Source: Escherichia phage A73
Length of the DNA stretch: 64,000 bases
Reading direction: 5' to 3' (one strand)
Sequence record: OP778609
In this document: positions 1-10,644 of the stretch, piece by piece
Position numbering within the stretch: position 1 is the first letter of the stretch
How the letters are laid out: each line of letters opens with the position of its first letter
Notes under the pieces: generated by a model
The model's database searches: none
What the model was told of the DNA's origin: nothing
The model's input: only the letters and a program-made list of their open reading frames with translations
Translations under genes and position numbers: made by a program

Positions 1-23
1 ATTAAAAAATGGAAGGAGTTTAA

Positions 24-557
24 ATGAAAAAGGTATTGAGTATTGAGCCGTTCACAACAACATACTTTGACGATTTGGAACGTCATGGTGATTATGGGGT
101 ACAAGACGCTGATGGTTGGAAAGAATTCCCTGAAGAAACAAAAGGTGACATTACAAAGCTCGGTTGTAAGATCAATGGATCTGAACCAAAAGGTGTTTAC
201 ACCATGTTTTCTTTCCTTGAAGCTATGAACCCAACGTACAAGGGAGATCGGCAATTTGGTTTTTCTTTTGCATCATTCCTTACTTGTAGCTGTGGTCATG
301 GGGGTTGTGCAGGCTATCATGATAATGTGGTTATTCGACGTAAAAAGAATACCGTGATGGTCATGGGTAAAAAGGAAGATGGTTATGACGAAGGTGTTGT
401 ATTGACAGGTGAATCTGTTGTATACTTCGATAAAAAGCAGTGGGACGGTGTTCTAGAACACTACCTTAAACTCTTCAAAGAAAATCCTGATGGTGTTTTT
501 GAAGATGCGGGTTTTATGTTTACTGGTCGTTGGGGGACTAAAAATTTTTCAAAATAA
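24..557 (+). CDS. hypothetical protein (177 aa)
   Basis: ATG at 24 with GGAAGGAG RBS; Cys cluster CSCGHGGCAGYH; no family recognised. Confidence 0.6.
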   Translation: MKKVLSIEPFTTTYFDDLERHGDYGVQDADGWKEFPEETKGDITKLGCKINGSEPKGVYTMFSFLEAMNPTYKGDRQFGFSFASFLTCSCGHGGCAGYHDNVVIRRKKNTVMVMGKKEDGYDEGVVLTGESVVYFDKKQWDGVLEHYLKLFKENPDGVFEDAGFMFTGRWGTKNFSK

Positions 558-569
558 TTTAAAAACTTG

Positions 570-597
570 TTGACTTAAGAAATAGAAAAGATATACT
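570..597 (+). promoter_or_regulatory. sigma70-type promoter TTGACT-16-TATACT
   Basis: -35/-10 hexamers with AT-rich upstream tract; transcript would start at CACATCA just before RBS GAGGAG of ORF 628. Confidence 0.6.
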
Positions 598-627
598 TAT
601 CACATCAAAAACAAGAGGAGATATAAA

Positions 628-1857
628 ATGCAAGCAACTTATCAACGTATGGACCAAACCATGTTCAAAAAACGTATCAGTATCCGTGATATGGAACCAC
701 TGATCCGTCTGGGCGCTTCCATCGGTAAGACCGTGTTCTTTTTTGGTGGTGCAGGTCTTGGTAAGTCTGAAAAAGTAAAACAGATCGCGGACTCTATGTT
801 CCCACATCGTGTAGGAAATAACCTGTGTGATGTTCGTCTGTCCGATAAAGAGCCGCAAGATATTGCAGGTATTCCGATTCCGATCTCTTATCCAGATCCA
901 AAGACTGGTGAAGAAGTTACCCGTACTGTATATGCTGTTCCAAACTTCTGGCCTACCGATCCTGATTGGGAAGGTATCGTGTTCCTGGATGAACTGCCGA
1001 ACGCACCATTGGGTACTCAGCACTCTGCATATCAGGTTATTCTTGATCACGTTGCAGGTGAACATAAGTTCCCGAAAGGTACTGTGTTTGTAGGTGCAGG
1101 TAACCGTGATACTGATGGCGCTGGGACAACATCTATGCCTGGTCCACTGGTTAACCGTATGATCATTGCAGAGGTCGATTATAATCTGGATGTGTGGATC
1201 GAAGATTATGCGATTCCGTTCCGTCTGCATCCGAACATTATTGGTTTCTTGAAGCAGTTTCCAGAGCATTTCTATACTGGTGACGTAGAAAACCGAAGCA
1301 CTCCGGTTTATTCATCTCCTCGCCAATGGAAAACCGCGTCTGACATTCTGTATAAGTACGATGCTGGCGAGATTAATGAATTTATCGCAGAGGTTGCCCT
1401 GGCAGGTACAGTTGGTGAAGGCTTGGAAGTGCAGATCCTTGCTTACCATTTACGTGCTAAAGAACTTCCTCCGATTGAAGATATCTTTAGTGGTGCAGTT
1501 AAAGAGCATAAACTTGATCGCAGCAAGAACGACCTTGTTTACGTACTGGCACAAACTGGTCTGCGTCGTATGGAAGATGAAGTTATGGATAACGATATGA
1601 CTGATGATAAGTTCCTTGAACGTGCAGGTAACTTCCTTACGTTCATGTACAATAACTATTATGCAAACAACAAGGATACGATGATTGCTTTGATCTTGGG
1701 CGTGTTCCGTGGTCCAAACGATAAGCCATCTATCCTGACTGTTAACCCGAAACGTCAGAAAATGATTCCGCTCATGCGTAAAAGTTGCCCGACTGTTTCT
1801 GCCGCAGTTATGGAATACATGACTCGCTATGGTCAACTGATTAAAGAATTCGAATAA
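628..1857 (+). CDS. AAA+ ATPase, MoxR/CbbQ-like
   Basis: Walker A GGAGLGKSE, Walker B IVFLDELP; 409 aa; ATG verified. Confidence 0.8.
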   Translation: MQATYQRMDQTMFKKRISIRDMEPLIRLGASIGKTVFFFGGAGLGKSEKVKQIADSMFPHRVGNNLCDVRLSDKEPQDIAGIPIPISYPDPKTGEEVTRTVYAVPNFWPTDPDWEGIVFLDELPNAPLGTQHSAYQVILDHVAGEHKFPKGTVFVGAGNRDTDGAGTTSMPGPLVNRMIIAEVDYNLDVWIEDYAIPFRLHPNIIGFLKQFPEHFYTGDVENRSTPVYSSPRQWKTASDILYKYDAGEINEFIAEVALAGTVGEGLEVQILAYHLRAKELPPIEDIFSGAVKEHKLDRSKNDLVYVLAQTGLRRMEDEVMDNDMTDDKFLERAGNFLTFMYNNYYANNKDTMIALILGVFRGPNDKPSILTVNPKRQKMIPLMRKSCPTVSAAVMEYMTRYGQLIKEFE

Positions 1858-1861
1858 TCTC

Positions 1862-1890
1862 TTGACAACGAAAAACAGTTAACTTAATAT
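1862..1890 (+). promoter_or_regulatory. sigma70-type promoter TTGACA-17-TAATAT
   Basis: consensus -35 and near-consensus -10, 5 nt after stop of ATPase gene. Confidence 0.6.
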
Positions 1891-1892
1891 AA

Positions 1893-1920
1893 GGGCATCT
1901 CGAAAGAGGTGTCCTTTTTT
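1893..1920 (+). terminator. GNRA-loop hairpin plus T6 tract (terminator/attenuator)
   Basis: GGCATCTC-GAAA-GAGGTGTCC stem (with G-U pairs) followed by TTTTTT; sits between promoter -10 and next RBS. Confidence 0.5.
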
Positions 1921-1937
1921 AATTTGGAGAAAATGAA

Positions 1938-3476
1938 ATGGCAAAACTTACGATTGAAGAAAGCAATATGATTGAAATGCAAGTCTCTGAAGCAGAGCGT
2001 ATCATCGAGGCTGCTAGTCTACAACTGATGCGGTTTAAGCCCTTCTACGGGGTAATGCTTTCGTCTATGCCTGTTAAAAAGGCGACGGAGTGGTGTAGTA
2101 CAATGGCGACTGATGGACGTAACCTGTATTACCATCCAGAGTTCGTTGCAGGTATGACAGAAGAACGTAAAAAATTGGTACTTGATCGACTTTCCAAAAC
2201 TGAGAAAGATCCTAAAAAGCTGAAAGAGTCCACTGAGTTTATTAATGTCTTCTATCGTCGCAAGACTGCCCGTGAGCTTGCTCTTATTCTTGAGCACGAA
2301 TGCGATCATGTGATCTCTGATCATGCCTCTCGCGGTAAAGGATTTAATCATGAACTTTACAACATTGCAGCGGATCATCGTATCAATACAACGGCGGTTC
2401 TTATTCACCAAAAGGGGGATGAGTTAGGTAAGGCATGGTTCCCTGCCGGAGAAAGAACAGTATTCGATAAGAATGCAGAATTTGGATTTATGGCCTGGTC
2501 TTACTGTGATTTCCGATTCAAAGATATGTATACTGAGCAGATCTATGAAATCCTGAATAAAGAGCAAGATGATAAAGAAAAATCCAAAGGGAAAGGTTCT
2601 GGTTCTGGAAGTGAAGAGGGTGATGGTGAAGAAGGTGGTCAAGGTCGTAAAGGTGTTGATCAGCACATGGATCAGAATGGTGATCCAGAAGATTCAGAAG
2701 GTGATGGTATCGAAGATGCACTAGGAATCGACCGTAAAGCGAAGCCTAAGCAAACAGCAGAGGAACGCCAGTATAACGATGGGGTTATGCGTCGAGCCAT
2801 TGAGAATGCCGTACAGGCAGCAGGAAGCGGTGCACCGGAAGATGCTCGTCGTTTTGTAGAAGCGGCGGGTAAACCAAAGATTAATTATCTTCGTTTGTTG
2901 CGTAAAACTATTGAACGTCTGTTCAAAGATGATGTATCATATCGTCGTTTGTCACGCCGTAGTCACTCGTTAACTCGGACTCTTCGTGGCTCGGGTTACT
3001 TATCTGGACGACAGACGATTGGTTTACCCTCAAAGAATAAACAGAAGACTATTCGTGCAGGTGTCTTCTTCGACGTATCGGGATCATTTAACGATGATCT
3101 ATTGCGTCCAACAATGCGTGAGATTCGTGGATTATGTAATCTTTACGACGAATTTGAGGTCACGATGGCTTGCTGGTCAACAAAGGTTGGTAACATCGAG
3201 ACGTATACGAAAAGAAACGTTGGTGAGATTGCTGACTATAAGATCAAAACGACATTTGGTACGGATGTTTCTTGTGTGTTTGAAGCATTAGATGAAATGA
3301 AAGACCCTATGGATCAGATCATCATCTATACTGACGGTTACTTTGCTGATGTATCCCAAAAGAAAGATTGGGCCAAAAAGTATGGTAAGAATGTTCTTTG
3401 GATCATCCTGGGTCGTGGGTCTTCGTTCACCCCACCTTTCGGTAAGGCAATTGATTTTGACAAGTATCTTAAATAA
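1938..3476 (+). CDS. VWA-domain protein with N-terminal HExxH metallopeptidase-like region
   Basis: MIDAS-type DxSxS (FFDVSGSF); HECDH motif; Gly/acidic low-complexity linker; directly follows AAA ATPase. Confidence 0.75.
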   Translation: MAKLTIEESNMIEMQVSEAERIIEAASLQLMRFKPFYGVMLSSMPVKKATEWCSTMATDGRNLYYHPEFVAGMTEERKKLVLDRLSKTEKDPKKLKESTEFINVFYRRKTARELALILEHECDHVISDHASRGKGFNHELYNIAADHRINTTAVLIHQKGDELGKAWFPAGERTVFDKNAEFGFMAWSYCDFRFKDMYTEQIYEILNKEQDDKEKSKGKGSGSGSEEGDGEEGGQGRKGVDQHMDQNGDPEDSEGDGIEDALGIDRKAKPKQTAEERQYNDGVMRRAIENAVQAAGSGAPEDARRFVEAAGKPKINYLRLLRKTIERLFKDDVSYRRLSRRSHSLTRTLRGSGYLSGRQTIGLPSKNKQKTIRAGVFFDVSGSFNDDLLRPTMREIRGLCNLYDEFEVTMACWSTKVGNIETYTKRNVGEIADYKIKTTFGTDVSCVFEALDEMKDPMDQIIIYTDGYFADVSQKKDWAKKYGKNVLWIILGRGSSFTPPFGKAIDFDKYLK

Positions 3477-3485
3477 GGAGGGTCT

Positions 3486-3857
3486 TTGAGCGAGTATACT
3501 TACAAGTTGTCAGTTGGTAGGCGTGGTGTGGTTATGACTATCAACATGATTAATGAGAGTGCGGAGGCTGTGAAGTGGTGGGCCTCCACCTTCAACGGGA
3601 AAGGTTTTACTTTATCGCGTCATAAGATTGAATCAGGAAAGCCGATAGATCTTGTCAAGGAGGACACTTTCTTGTATCCTGATCGTATCAGTGATGAAGA
3701 TATTGATTTCCTGTCCGCTACGGTTGGTAGTCTGTTAGATGAGGAGCCAGATATTGTAAGGTTGCTCTCTTTGCTTTCCGCAATGTGGTCAGCAGGTCAT
3801 GATGAGGAAAGTATGCATACGATGGTAAGGAATACGTTGAGACGTTGGTCTAAGTAA
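3486..3857 (+). CDS. hypothetical protein (123 aa)
   Basis: TTG start 6 nt after strong RBS AAGGAGG; no motif. Confidence 0.5.
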   Translation: MSEYTYKLSVGRRGVVMTINMINESAEAVKWWASTFNGKGFTLSRHKIESGKPIDLVKEDTFLYPDRISDEDIDFLSATVGSLLDEEPDIVRLLSLLSAMWSAGHDEESMHTMVRNTLRRWSK

Positions 3858-3910
3858 CAACATTTCCTTTATGCCCATTTAGGCATACAATACTATATTA
3901 GATGATAAAC

Positions 3911-3946
3911 CCCTCAACCTGCTCGGTTGCTTCGACGGGGTTTATA
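3911..3946 (+). terminator. imperfect hairpin followed by T-rich run
   Basis: CCCC..CAACC-loop-GGTTG..GGGG then TTTATAT. Confidence 0.35.
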
Positions 3947-4016
3947 TATCTATTAAAAAATTAACCACACTCACATTCGTTCGGTACTTAATTTTTTAAG
4001 TCACCACAAAATTGTG

Positions 4017-4045
4017 TTGACACCACAATGAAACAGATGTAGAGT
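4017..4045 (+). promoter_or_regulatory. sigma70-type promoter TTGACA-17-TAGAGT
   Basis: consensus -35; weaker -10; 130 nt leader before ORF 4178. Confidence 0.45.
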
Positions 4046-4177
4046 TAACAAGAGAAGGAAAGTCAATTGGATAAGTTTTACATATACTGTCTAACATTGG
4101 GATTGATCTTCATGATTGTTGGATCAGTGGGTAAAGTTTTACTCAATAGTTTTGGAATTTATTAAGAGGAGATCGTA

Positions 4178-4420
4178 ATGAGAGTACGTCAACATCGTGG
4201 TACATTGATCGAAAGTTTGAAAACTGTTAAACAGATTGAAAGTACAAAACAAGCTCTTGTGGATCATATCAACAAAGAGTTAGGTAAACCGTTTAACTTC
4301 TCTGTTGATTCGATCAGTATTGTGGAAAAAGGAGTTGATGAGCGTATCAACTGGAACAATCATCTCATCCTGATTGATGGATTTGGTGTATTTGGTTATT
4401 GTGATCAACATCCTGTTTAA
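4178..4420 (+). CDS. hypothetical protein (80 aa)
   Basis: ATG with AGAGGAG RBS. Confidence 0.55.
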   Translation: MRVRQHRGTLIESLKTVKQIESTKQALVDHINKELGKPFNFSVDSISIVEKGVDERINWNNHLILIDGFGVFGYCDQHPV

Positions 4421-4540
4421 GAGGTGGTTATGGGTATTAAATGGTGGTTGTTTGTAGTTCCTGCAAATGATAATGCAGGTGGTGATGATAAACGTGCAGT
4501 CGCACAAACCTATGTCTATGGTCGTCGTTAAGGGGTTATT

Positions 4541-4948
4541 ATGGATGCTTTTTTGAGTATAGTCTTTGCACTAACAGTGGTTGATTGGGTATTTATCGGT
4601 ATCTATTTACTGTGTATTCCTTTTGTGATCTGGTTTTACATTGACCTTTTGGCAGGTACTGGCAAAGTAAGTGGGATGGACTACTTCATGTTTATTGTTG
4701 TGATCCTGATGGGACCTTTAGCTTTGTTGTCTTTCCTTATTGCAAACATTGTGGTAAGAGGGGGCGCTATCAAACAAGCCATTCTTTTAAAGGTGAGTGG
4801 AACTGATATCGGTAAGAAGATCATTGTCTGGAACATTACACGTAAGCTTAAGAAGACTGATACCAAATGGGTTAATCCTTTAGAGCGAGCCGTTCAGAAA
4901 CGTCACAAAGTCTTAATAGGGAGAAAACATGGGAAATACAATCCGTAA
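4541..4948 (+). CDS. membrane protein (135 aa, 2 predicted TM, basic C-terminus)
   Basis: hydrophobic segments LTVVDWVFIGIYLLCIPFVIWFYI and FMFIVVILMGPLALLSFLIANIVV; RBS AAGGGG. Confidence 0.6.
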   Translation: MDAFLSIVFALTVVDWVFIGIYLLCIPFVIWFYIDLLAGTGKVSGMDYFMFIVVILMGPLALLSFLIANIVVRGGAIKQAILLKVSGTDIGKKIIVWNITRKLKKTDTKWVNPLERAVQKRHKVLIGRKHGKYNP

Positions 4949-10498: not shown

Positions 10499-10526
10499 TT
10501 GACAGCACCGATTAAAAGCGTATAAT
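10499..10526 (+). promoter_or_regulatory. sigma70 promoter TTGACA-16-TATAAT with no ORF downstream
   Basis: consensus hexamers; downstream hairpin CGGGGA..TCCCCG and RBS-like CCAGGAG but no start codon before the next promoter. Confidence 0.6.
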
Positions 10527-10616: not shown

Positions 10617-10644
10617 TTGACAATAGTTTTTAGTACTGTATAAT
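10617..10644 (+). promoter_or_regulatory. sigma70 promoter TTGACA-16-TATAAT with leader hairpin
   Basis: followed by hairpin GGGGAGAATAGTTCTCCCC (about 10657-10675) then RBS AAAGGA. Confidence 0.65.

Follow-up and report, generated by a model that had tools for sequence, protein, structure and literature searches.

The 64,000-nt stretch of Escherichia phage A73 analysed here (sequence record OP778609; the window) carries near its start, at positions 628 to 3,476, the genes for a MoxR-type ATPase and for a partner protein in which an N-terminal metallopeptidase-like domain is joined to a C-terminal VWA domain. By sequence comparison the pair is the Vequintavirinae version of the gp24/gp25 type of module of coliphage N4. 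Because of this homology, and because Iyer et al. 2021 (Viruses 13:63, PMC7824862) described the same architecture of MoxR and vWA with an N-terminal metallopeptidase in group 2.2 jumbo phages, the architecture is already catalogued and does not represent a new kind of system. We consider it probable that the two proteins act as an ATPase and a VWA cochaperone with its own minimal zincin peptidase of the M48/minigluzincin type, that they are expressed from host-type promoters, and that their client is a host or non-structural protein.

The annotation of phage RaK2 was the pointer to N4. In hhalign comparisons the window ATPase aligned with N4 gp24 at a probability of 99.9% (E 8e-34) and the partner with N4 gp25 at 100% (E 2.9e-45), the latter being a clear DUF2201_N plus DUF2201 protein (E 3e-87 and 1e-46). 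Of the 14 genes that form the core set of N4-like phages, two encode gp24, listed as 'unknown' or as a putative AAA ATPase, and gp25, listed under 'vWFA domain' (PMC4193335, PMC2784036, PMC6992544). Homology to the window pair is near full-length, the gene order is the same, and the partner has two domains bearing an HExxH motif and a metal ion-dependent adhesion site (MIDAS). The window proteins are however larger than those of N4 (409 versus 352 aa and 512 versus 380 aa), the partner differing from gp25 by a two-helix insert of about 35 aa, a Gly/acidic linker of much greater length and an additional segment ahead of the VWA core. The N4 middle genes use N4's own RNAPII, whereas the window genes are preceded by host-type promoters. 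An earlier description made from the letters of the window (the sequence-only reading) had not recognised the gp24/gp25 module.

Conservation in the ATPase was judged from an alignment of 35 homologs and in the partner from 34 homologs with identity down to 22%, the two alignments together reaching down to 22-26% identity. The features of the ATPase gene are as follows.

628..1857 (+): MoxR-type ATPase gene, open reading frame (ORF) of 409 aa with an ATG start in the ORF listing.
745-768 (+): Walker A, GGAGLGKS, aa 40-47; G40, G43, G45, K46 and S47 invariant.
844..969 (+): helix-2 insert region, aa 73-114; beta-hairpin E82-89/E96-103 by DSSP of the AlphaFold model.
976-993 (+): Walker B, IVFLDE, aa 117-122; D121 and E122 invariant.
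1048..1080 (+): pre-sensor-1 beta-hairpin region, aa 141-151; DSSP gives short strands at aa 141-149 before beta4.
1102-1104 and 1156-1158 (+): sensor-1 position N159 and R177, following the pre-sensor-1 region; both invariant.

The protein therefore holds what an AAA+ core requires, namely Walker A, Walker B, the sensor-1 Asn (N159) and an Arg finger (R177), and R160 and R232 are invariant as well. The most conserved stretch of the family is the helix-2 insert, in which DKEPxDxxG...FWPTDPNW is kept, and from what is described for NorQ (PMC13036017) this insert may face the pore and bind the finger of a VWA partner. In the AlphaFold model of the ATPase (predicted local distance difference test, pLDDT, 88.6; predicted template modelling score, pTM, 0.81) the hairpin between beta2 and beta3 and the strands before beta4 correspond to the inserts of the PS1/H2-insert clade that contains MoxR, as judged from the secondary structure of the model and not from its coordinates. 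When the model was compared with the Protein Data Bank (PDB) using Foldseek, the best 13 matches were NorQ, alone or in complex with NorD's VWA domain, and the Rubisco activase CbbQ2, with target-normalised template modelling (TM) scores of ~0.6 against ~0.4 for the clamp-loader (RFC) subunits that come next in the list. The C-terminal helical region (~aa 250-409; a domain of ~150-200 aa) is family-specific and has no counterpart in the PDB (TMq ~0.4).

Profile comparisons point the same way. The profile of the ATPase family finds the AAA modules of Midasin as its top match among PDB sequences (E 6e-13), with Clp at 1e-5, and hhalign aligns it over 282 columns with a Clostridia MoxR protein that is positive for AAA_3, the Pfam model of the MoxR family (probability 100%, E 1.4e-46). 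The commonest Pfam match across members is bpMoxR, below threshold in 16 of 35, and AAA_5, dynein AAA_7 and Mg-chelatase also recur. In PHROGs the ATPase belongs to phrog_1297 (E 7.5e-101). Searches of the PDB with single sequences gave nothing useful.

The partner gene, which follows on the same strand, has these features.

1938..3476 (+): peptidase-VWA protein gene, N4 gp25 homolog, ORF of 512 aa with an ATG start in the ORF listing; phrog_1314 E 1e-105; AF2 pLDDT 80.5.
1938..2561 (+): DUF2201_N putative metallopeptidase domain, aa 1-208, from Pfam.
2154-2261 (+): two-helix insert of ~35 residues, aa 73-108, between the beta-sheet and the active-site helix.
2295..2333 (+): active-site helix motif HExxHxxxxHxxR, HECDHVISDHASR; H120, H124, H129 and R132 invariant, E121 at least 90% conserved.
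2562..2726 (+): disordered Gly/acidic linker, aa 209-263; of its 55 residues 14 are Gly and 18 are Asp/Glu.
2937..2963 (+): basic motif SYRRLSRRS, directly before the VWA core, kept as [ST][YF]xRxxRR in phage, N4 and Clostridia forms.
3045..3476 (+): VWA-like domain at the C-terminus, aa ~370-512, carrying MIDAS DVSGS, T442 and D466.

Pfam assigns the N-terminal half to DUF2201_N ('putative metallopeptidase domain'; 91.5 bits, cut-off 23.2) and the C-terminal half to DUF2201 ('VWA-like domain'; 33 bits, cut-off 26.4), and all 34 partner homologs match both models. The HECDH sequence itself (aa 120-124, nt 2295-2309) sits in helix 111-131 of the AlphaFold model, where three short strands, the active-site helix and a second helix follow one another in an order that fits a zincin. 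A profile built from the N-terminal domain alone (alignment A3) matched 12 PDB sequences and all 12 were zincin peptidases, among them minigluzincin MJ1213, which was the best, HtpX, BepA, an M48 peptidase, projannalysin and Ste24. The HExxH of the family aligned with the catalytic HExxH of MJ1213, HtpX, BepA and M48, and BepA (HEISHVTQRHLAR) has the extended HExxHxxxxHxxR pattern too. Below threshold, M48 (14 of 34), PhageMetallopep, SprT-like and M56 models recur among members. The two-helix insert is found in the Vequintavirinae-type proteins and is absent from N4 gp25 and from the marine phage and Clostridia forms.

In the AlphaFold model of the partner, a confidently predicted N-terminal domain is followed by a disordered linker and this in turn by an alpha/beta domain at the C-terminus. 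The linker has a pLDDT below 50 at aa 221-236 and varies in length among homologs. In the C-terminal domain, fold searching returned the Rossmann-like alpha/beta fold of VWA domains, and each residue of the MIDAS (D379-V-S381-G-S383, nt 3072-3086; T442, nt 3261-3263; D466, nt 3333-3335) is invariant. That the basic motif before the VWA core might be an element that contacts MoxR is a speculation on our part. Since the motif residues of both proteins are invariant or nearly so across the 35 and 34 homologs, we take them to be real and under selection and not chance matches. The sequence-only reading had described a MoxR-type ATPase with Walker A and Walker B, followed by a protein with an HExxH motif in its N-terminal half and a MIDAS-containing VWA domain in its C-terminal half, joined by a Gly/acidic linker, and had looked to a DUF2201-like peptidase domain. 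Each of these points is borne out by the comparisons above: the ATPase by its structural and profile neighbours, the HExxH motif by its alignment onto solved M48 and minigluzincin peptidases, the peptidase domain by exactly the Pfam family named, the linker by agreement of composition and low pLDDT, and the VWA domain by its fold and complete MIDAS.

Another label has been attached to the partner in databases. phrog_1314 and many GenBank records carry the name 'HNH endonuclease' for this family, to which N4 gp25 and RaK2 gp481 belong; we reject the name, as no HNH Pfam model matched the window protein or any of its 34 homologs at E<=1. On this Pfam comparison the label is an annotation artefact. 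In the records of APECc02, A6-1 and pangalan the VWA gene bears the label 'anti-sigma factor', apparently mis-transferred from a neighbour.

The module is widely distributed. By tblastn the ATPase was found in 814 phage records, the window partner in 326 and N4 gp25 in 680, and the taxa that carry homologs include Vequintavirinae, Schitoviridae, RaK2/121Q-like and PA5oct jumbo phages, Bacillus phage G and Aeromonas Plateaulakevirus. An exhaustive search with the partner profile returned 31,677 cluster representatives when the limit was E<=1e-3 and 12,510 when it was E<=1e-30; most are full-length proteins with both domains, 380-500 aa long. The ATPase and VWA genes stand side by side in N4, RaK2, phAPEC6, Aeromonas phage 2L372X, Certrevirus, marine phage contigs and Clostridia. 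The sequence-only reading would have been undermined by absence of the pair from related phages, and we found it in all Vequintavirinae genera checked. This makes the pair one of the most widespread phage modules without an assigned function, present throughout Vequintavirinae and in several jumbo-phage groups, with a partner family for which public data contain more than 30,000 cluster representatives. Identifying the target would account for a step of infection that is conserved in many coliphages considered as therapeutic candidates, and would give the DUF2201 family its first function. A practical consequence is that the genes should be annotated as MoxR-like ATPase and N4 gp25-like zincin-VWA protein, and not as 'HNH endonuclease' or 'anti-sigma factor'. 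Genome-wide CRISPRi-ART screens have covered T4, T5, SUSP1 and PTXU04, and neither N4 nor an rV5-like phage.

Three sites in the spacers around the two genes bear on their expression.

570..597 (+): sigma-70-like promoter TTGACT-16-TATACT upstream of the ATPase gene; 10/12 match, 70-nt spacer, consensus-level.
1862..1890 (+): sigma-70-like promoter TTGACA-17-TAATAT upstream of the peptidase-VWA gene; 10/12 match, consensus-level.
1891..1922 (+): 11-bp stem-loop with T-run, intrinsic-terminator-like (stem-loop plus T-run 1891-1916); RNA fold of the spacer -19.4 kcal/mol, z -2.97.

Within positions 1..4600 there were 13 promoter-like matches and 10.6 +/- 3.1 in shuffled sequence, which is no excess. 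The three best matches on the + strand all fall in intergenic spacers, and both sites listed above recur at equivalent positions in Pectobacterium phage POP15 (TTGACA-17-TATAAT before the ATPase gene and TTGACA-16-TAAAAT before the VWA gene), the proteins of which are only ~63-74% identical to those of the window. In rV5, sigma-70-like promoters that cluster in such regions of short ORFs are read as early, with unit 11-26 beginning at bidirectional promoters (PMC3606486), an early sigma-70-like promoter of Certrevirus is concentrated in the region of short ORFs (PMC7344957), and N4 gp24/gp25 are reported as middle transcripts (PMC4193335). The proposal that each gene has its own early promoter holds in part: consensus sites of the sigma-70 type stand in both spacers and are kept in POP15, but the arrangement is not general, as the ATPase gene of the rV5 genus abuts the gene upstream of it. 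The pair is probably expressed early or midway in infection, to judge from these sites and from its place in a block of short ORFs; and since that block has host sigma-70-type promoters, a host or non-structural client is probable as well.

The stem-loop was overlooked in the sequence-only reading. It begins 1 nt past the second -10 hexamer, so a transcript from the promoter at 1862-1890 would lack the 5' arm of the hairpin. Read-through from upstream would, from the arrangement of these sites, meet a terminator, and only read-through RNA would hold the whole hairpin. Analogous hairpins whose stems are unrelated in sequence occur just upstream of the Shine-Dalgarno sequence of the VWA gene in POP15 (L002:6275-6305), PVP-SE1 (L005:3952-3975), BP9 (L095:2870-2886, minus strand) and RaK2 (L003:3934-3962), making five phage lineages with the window. 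The idea that an intercistronic hairpin sets a 6:1 ratio of ATPase to VWA protein is weakened, as a hairpin precedes the VWA gene even where the ATPase gene lies elsewhere.

A possible mechanism can be drawn up by analogy with the NorQ-NorD pair. Cryo-electron microscopy of NorQD has revealed a MoxR hexamer bearing one docked VWA partner, a finger of which reaches into the pore and touches the helix-2 inserts, and an ATP-driven rotation that stretches the linker between the VWA and N-terminal domains (PMC13036017). The parts of the phage pair that match are the conserved helix-2 insert of the ATPase and, in the partner, the invariant MIDAS, the long linker and the basic motif. A hexamer of the phage ATPase might likewise dock one copy of the partner through its VWA domain (MoxR6-VWA1), in analogy to NorQ-NorD and CbbQ-CbbO, and the invariant MIDAS might then capture an acidic residue of the target protein. 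Motion of the VWA domain relative to the N-terminal domain, driven by ATP and transmitted through the flexible linker, could remodel the target or un-gate the peptidase, and the peptidase domain could then cleave the target. The sequence comparisons establish the domain identities, the conserved catalytic and metal-site residues, the homology to N4 gp24/gp25 and to bona fide MoxR, the wide co-occurrence of the genes and the promoter-like sites. Complex formation, proteolysis, timing and the class of target are what we infer here; the phrase 'ATP-driven activation of a protease' in the sequence-only reading is likewise an inference.

Several observations weigh against a complex of ATPase, VWA cochaperone and peptidase. 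The window ATPase has no Pfam match at E<=1 and so does not reach the gathering score of AAA_3 or AAA_5, which is why the label 'MoxR-type' needed testing. The AAA_5 cut-off is 22, and N4 gp24 falls just below it (20.4) and an Aeromonas phage homolog above it (31.3); by such scores the ATPase family is a divergent branch outside the coverage of the Pfam models. In the partner, the best match to a zincin in the PDB has an E value of only 1.9e-4, both fold searches gave lists filled by VWA matches, and for the third zinc ligand there are only candidates, D146 and E200, each at least 90% conserved. No finger-like extension of the VWA domain is evident in the AlphaFold model. In the rV5 and PVP-SE1 genera the two genes stand apart. 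In the literature we found no protease, ATPase, binding, knockout or transcript experiment for any member of the family; a full-text search for 'DUF2201' gave no functional study and turned up no published peptidase assay for any DUF2201 protein. Lastly, a MoxR homolog has been detected in virion preparations of phAPEC6: in the part of the mass spectrometry table considered here, gp265c (L097:3041-4366) is represented by 6 peptides with 19% coverage.

This last observation fits a rival account, in which the pair is a virion-assembly chaperone and protease that folds or assembles structural proteins and trims them during maturation of the particle. Virion assembly has been published as the role of the same architecture (Iyer et al. 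2021, PMC7824862), by analogy with the MoxR/VWA pair of Acidianus two-tailed virus, and the genes directly upstream of the pair in RaK2 and in phAPEC6 encode proteins that are annotated, or were detected, as belonging to the virion. We nevertheless regard it as unlikely. The same portion of the phAPEC6 table includes thymidylate synthase, which makes carry-over of non-structural proteins likely, and does not include the partner gp264c. In the window, Certrevirus, rV5 and N4 the pair lies in early or middle host-promoter blocks or beside genes of nucleotide metabolism and replication, and not in structural modules (PMC4193335); it stands among middle or replication genes in N4, beside those for thymidylate synthase and DprA in RaK2, and beside one for a 5'-3' exonuclease in marine contigs. 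It also serves both N4-like podoviruses and myoviruses, the architectures of which are very different, so that a shared structural substrate is unlikely, and this occurrence together with the gene position favours a non-virion client. A different function without proteolysis, which we hold to be quite improbable, would make the pair a chaperone for metal insertion or remodelling like NorQD, CoxDE, CobST or BchID, the His-rich N-terminal domain being used for metal binding or docking. Most MoxR/VWA pairs that have been characterised do act in metal insertion or enzyme activation (PMC13036017, PMC9976466), NorQ and CbbQ are the closest structural matches of the ATPase, and phages that bear the pair encode metalloenzymes nearby in the genome, for example an anaerobic ribonucleotide reductase. 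Metal binding alone, however, does not need the general-base Glu of HExxH, a residue kept in at least 90% of a family that counts more than 30,000 cluster representatives; the N-domain profile matches true peptidases only, and no candidate client enzyme is linked to the pair in a conserved manner across lineages.

The proteins could also be independent neighbours, the ATPase working in another process and the VWA-peptidase on its own. In BP9, of the rV5 genus, the MoxR gene lies near rIIA on the opposite strand, 3.7 kb from the partner gene, and in the rV5 and PVP-SE1 genera alike the separated peptidase-VWA gene follows a gene for a T4 Srd-like anti-sigma-70 protein, phrog_3118 (BP9, L095:2892-3881; PVP-SE1, L005:2809-3684; PMC3606486); in the window a terminator-like hairpin stands between the two genes. 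From the separation in these genera it follows that coupling in an operon is not essential, but independence of the proteins seems to us very remote, as at least seven unrelated lineages of phages and bacteria have the genes side by side, their reading frames overlap in 80 Clostridia genomes, both are retained in the rV5 genus, and MoxR ATPases are nearly always paired with a VWA partner (PMC13036017). PVP-SE1 genes 218 and 217 were considered as an ATPase with a conserved annotated promoter and rejected, the hhalign probability being 0.2% and PHROGs placing the gene upstream of the VWA gene in BP9 and PVP-SE1 with Srd-like anti-sigma proteins.

A peptidase working with an ATPase and VWA cochaperone, as we favour, can be compared with several known systems. 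The jumbo-phage pair of Iyer et al. 2021 has the same architecture and belongs to the same family, with RaK2 and phAPEC6 homologs found by tblastn and phAPEC6 gp265c and gp264c annotated 'MoxR ATPase' and 'N4 gp25-like'. That description covers jumbo phages only and proposes virion assembly, whereas the window pair lies in the early-type block of a rV5-like phage of 137-145 kb. The N-terminal domains of NorD and CbbO are not peptidases and the clients of those proteins are respiratory or carbon-fixation enzymes, unlike the phage pair; relative to NorQ and CbbQ the phage ATPase adds its C-terminal helical domain, and the modelled phage VWA domain does without an evident finger. Small M48 and minigluzincin peptidases are typically gated. 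They are the sole PDB families matched by the N-domain profile, with HExxHxxxxHxxR common to BepA, and the phage domain would, like them, be a small zincin core in need of gating; the similarity is marginal (E 1.9e-4 to 0.04), and the phage domain differs in having no membrane segments or tetratricopeptide repeats and in being fused to VWA. With FtsH-type AAA+ zinc proteases and with Cdc48/p97 acting with Wss1/SPRTN the pair shares the logic of an AAA+ motor and an HExxH peptidase, as an analogy only, since the ATPase is of another AAA+ clade and coupling would run through a separate VWA adaptor and not through fusion or SHP/VIM motifs. The vWA-MoxR ternary conflict systems (VMAP / iSTAND; Kaur et al. 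2020) are defined by a third component and a vWA-fused variable effector, a combination that the phage pair lacks: across the phage lineages compared no conserved third gene stands beside it. Metallopeptidase effectors are mentioned there only as rare (Kaur et al. 2020). PADLOC returned only DolB P-loop at E 0.01 for the ATPase and nothing for the partner or for N4 gp24/gp25, and NCBIfam has no assignment for the pair.

Distant bacterial homologs (~23% identity) were found in 80 genomes, almost all Clostridia. All 75 loci for which sufficient upstream DNA was available show one order, a SNF2/ResIII helicase of ~1,100 aa, MoxR (AAA_3) and the DUF2201 peptidase-VWA protein, and the MoxR and DUF2201 genes overlap by 11 nt (L007-L090; for example L007:1396-7257). 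These loci were found with a Clostridia-type sub-alignment that samples one clade (57-79% identity), so the operon counts as a single evolutionary observation. The trio matched no PADLOC or NCBIfam system and we found no description of it in the literature. The helicase weakly matches the 'SCO1167/SCO6262 family helicase' and the N4 record labels gp24/gp25 'similar to S. coel. protein 1/2', from which a similar trio may exist in Streptomyces. A narrower proposal, that the module is an early ATP-driven protease which strips or degrades DNA-bound proteins (host nucleoid or transcription proteins, or DNA-protein adducts) and not a virion chaperone, draws on the helicase operon of Clostridia, on the replication and nucleotide-metabolism neighbours in N4, RaK2 and marine contigs, on the Srd-like anti-sigma-70 neighbour in rV5 and PVP-SE1, and on the sub-threshold SprT-like matches of several members. 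We rate it as a long shot; if true, prokaryotes and viruses would have in the module a counterpart of the Cdc48-Wss1/SPRTN logic.

The window's initial 6 kb is 94-96% identical to Escherichia phages vB_EcoM-LTH01, W70, A5-4, A7_1 and UPEC06, rV5-like myoviruses of 137-145 kb in the Vequintavirinae. The window's copy of the pair is nearly identical to sequences already deposited. The W70 record labels both genes 'hypothetical protein' and the UPEC06 record labels the first 'ATPase / MoxR ATPase'. The pair makes up the third and fourth ORFs of a + strand block of ~55 mostly short ORFs, which starts at a divergent intergenic (promoter) region immediately upstream of the window. One further ORF lies directly behind the pair.

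3486..3857 (+): 123-aa ORF, possible accessory gene; TTG start 9 nt past the VWA stop with AGGAGG upstream; phrog_12385 E 1.7e-27.

A weak homolog of this ORF (E 2e-5) lies in PVP-SE1 directly downstream of the VWA gene and overlaps its end, and among the lineages compared none was found beside the pair outside Vequintavirinae. It was rejected as a conserved third component, being confined to that subfamily and unrelated to the small gene beside the ATPase gene of the rV5 genus.

In UPEC06 (L001:3464-4027) and POP15 (L002:2902-3462) the first gene of the + strand unit is labelled GTP pyrophosphokinase or (p)ppGpp pyrophosphohydrolase, and the equivalent position is just upstream of window position 1. 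The annotation of these relatives suggests that alarmone manipulation stands at the start of the early-type block. Across window positions 1-23000 (+) sigma-70-like sites are numerous in the short-ORF block, two of them (10499-10526 and 10617-10644) being perfect at 12/12, and there are 29 terminator-like hairpins against a shuffle expectation of 14.3 +/- 4.2, about twice as many. Sixteen records named 'Campylobacter phage' (C5, A135, A12a, C9 and others; for example MG065659, MG065690 and MG065666) hold rV5-type copies of the pair at an identity equal to that of the E. coli rV5 phages, which suggests host mis-assignment or contamination of those records. The GC skew of the window changes sign near 24 kb, at the same place as the switch of the coding strand.

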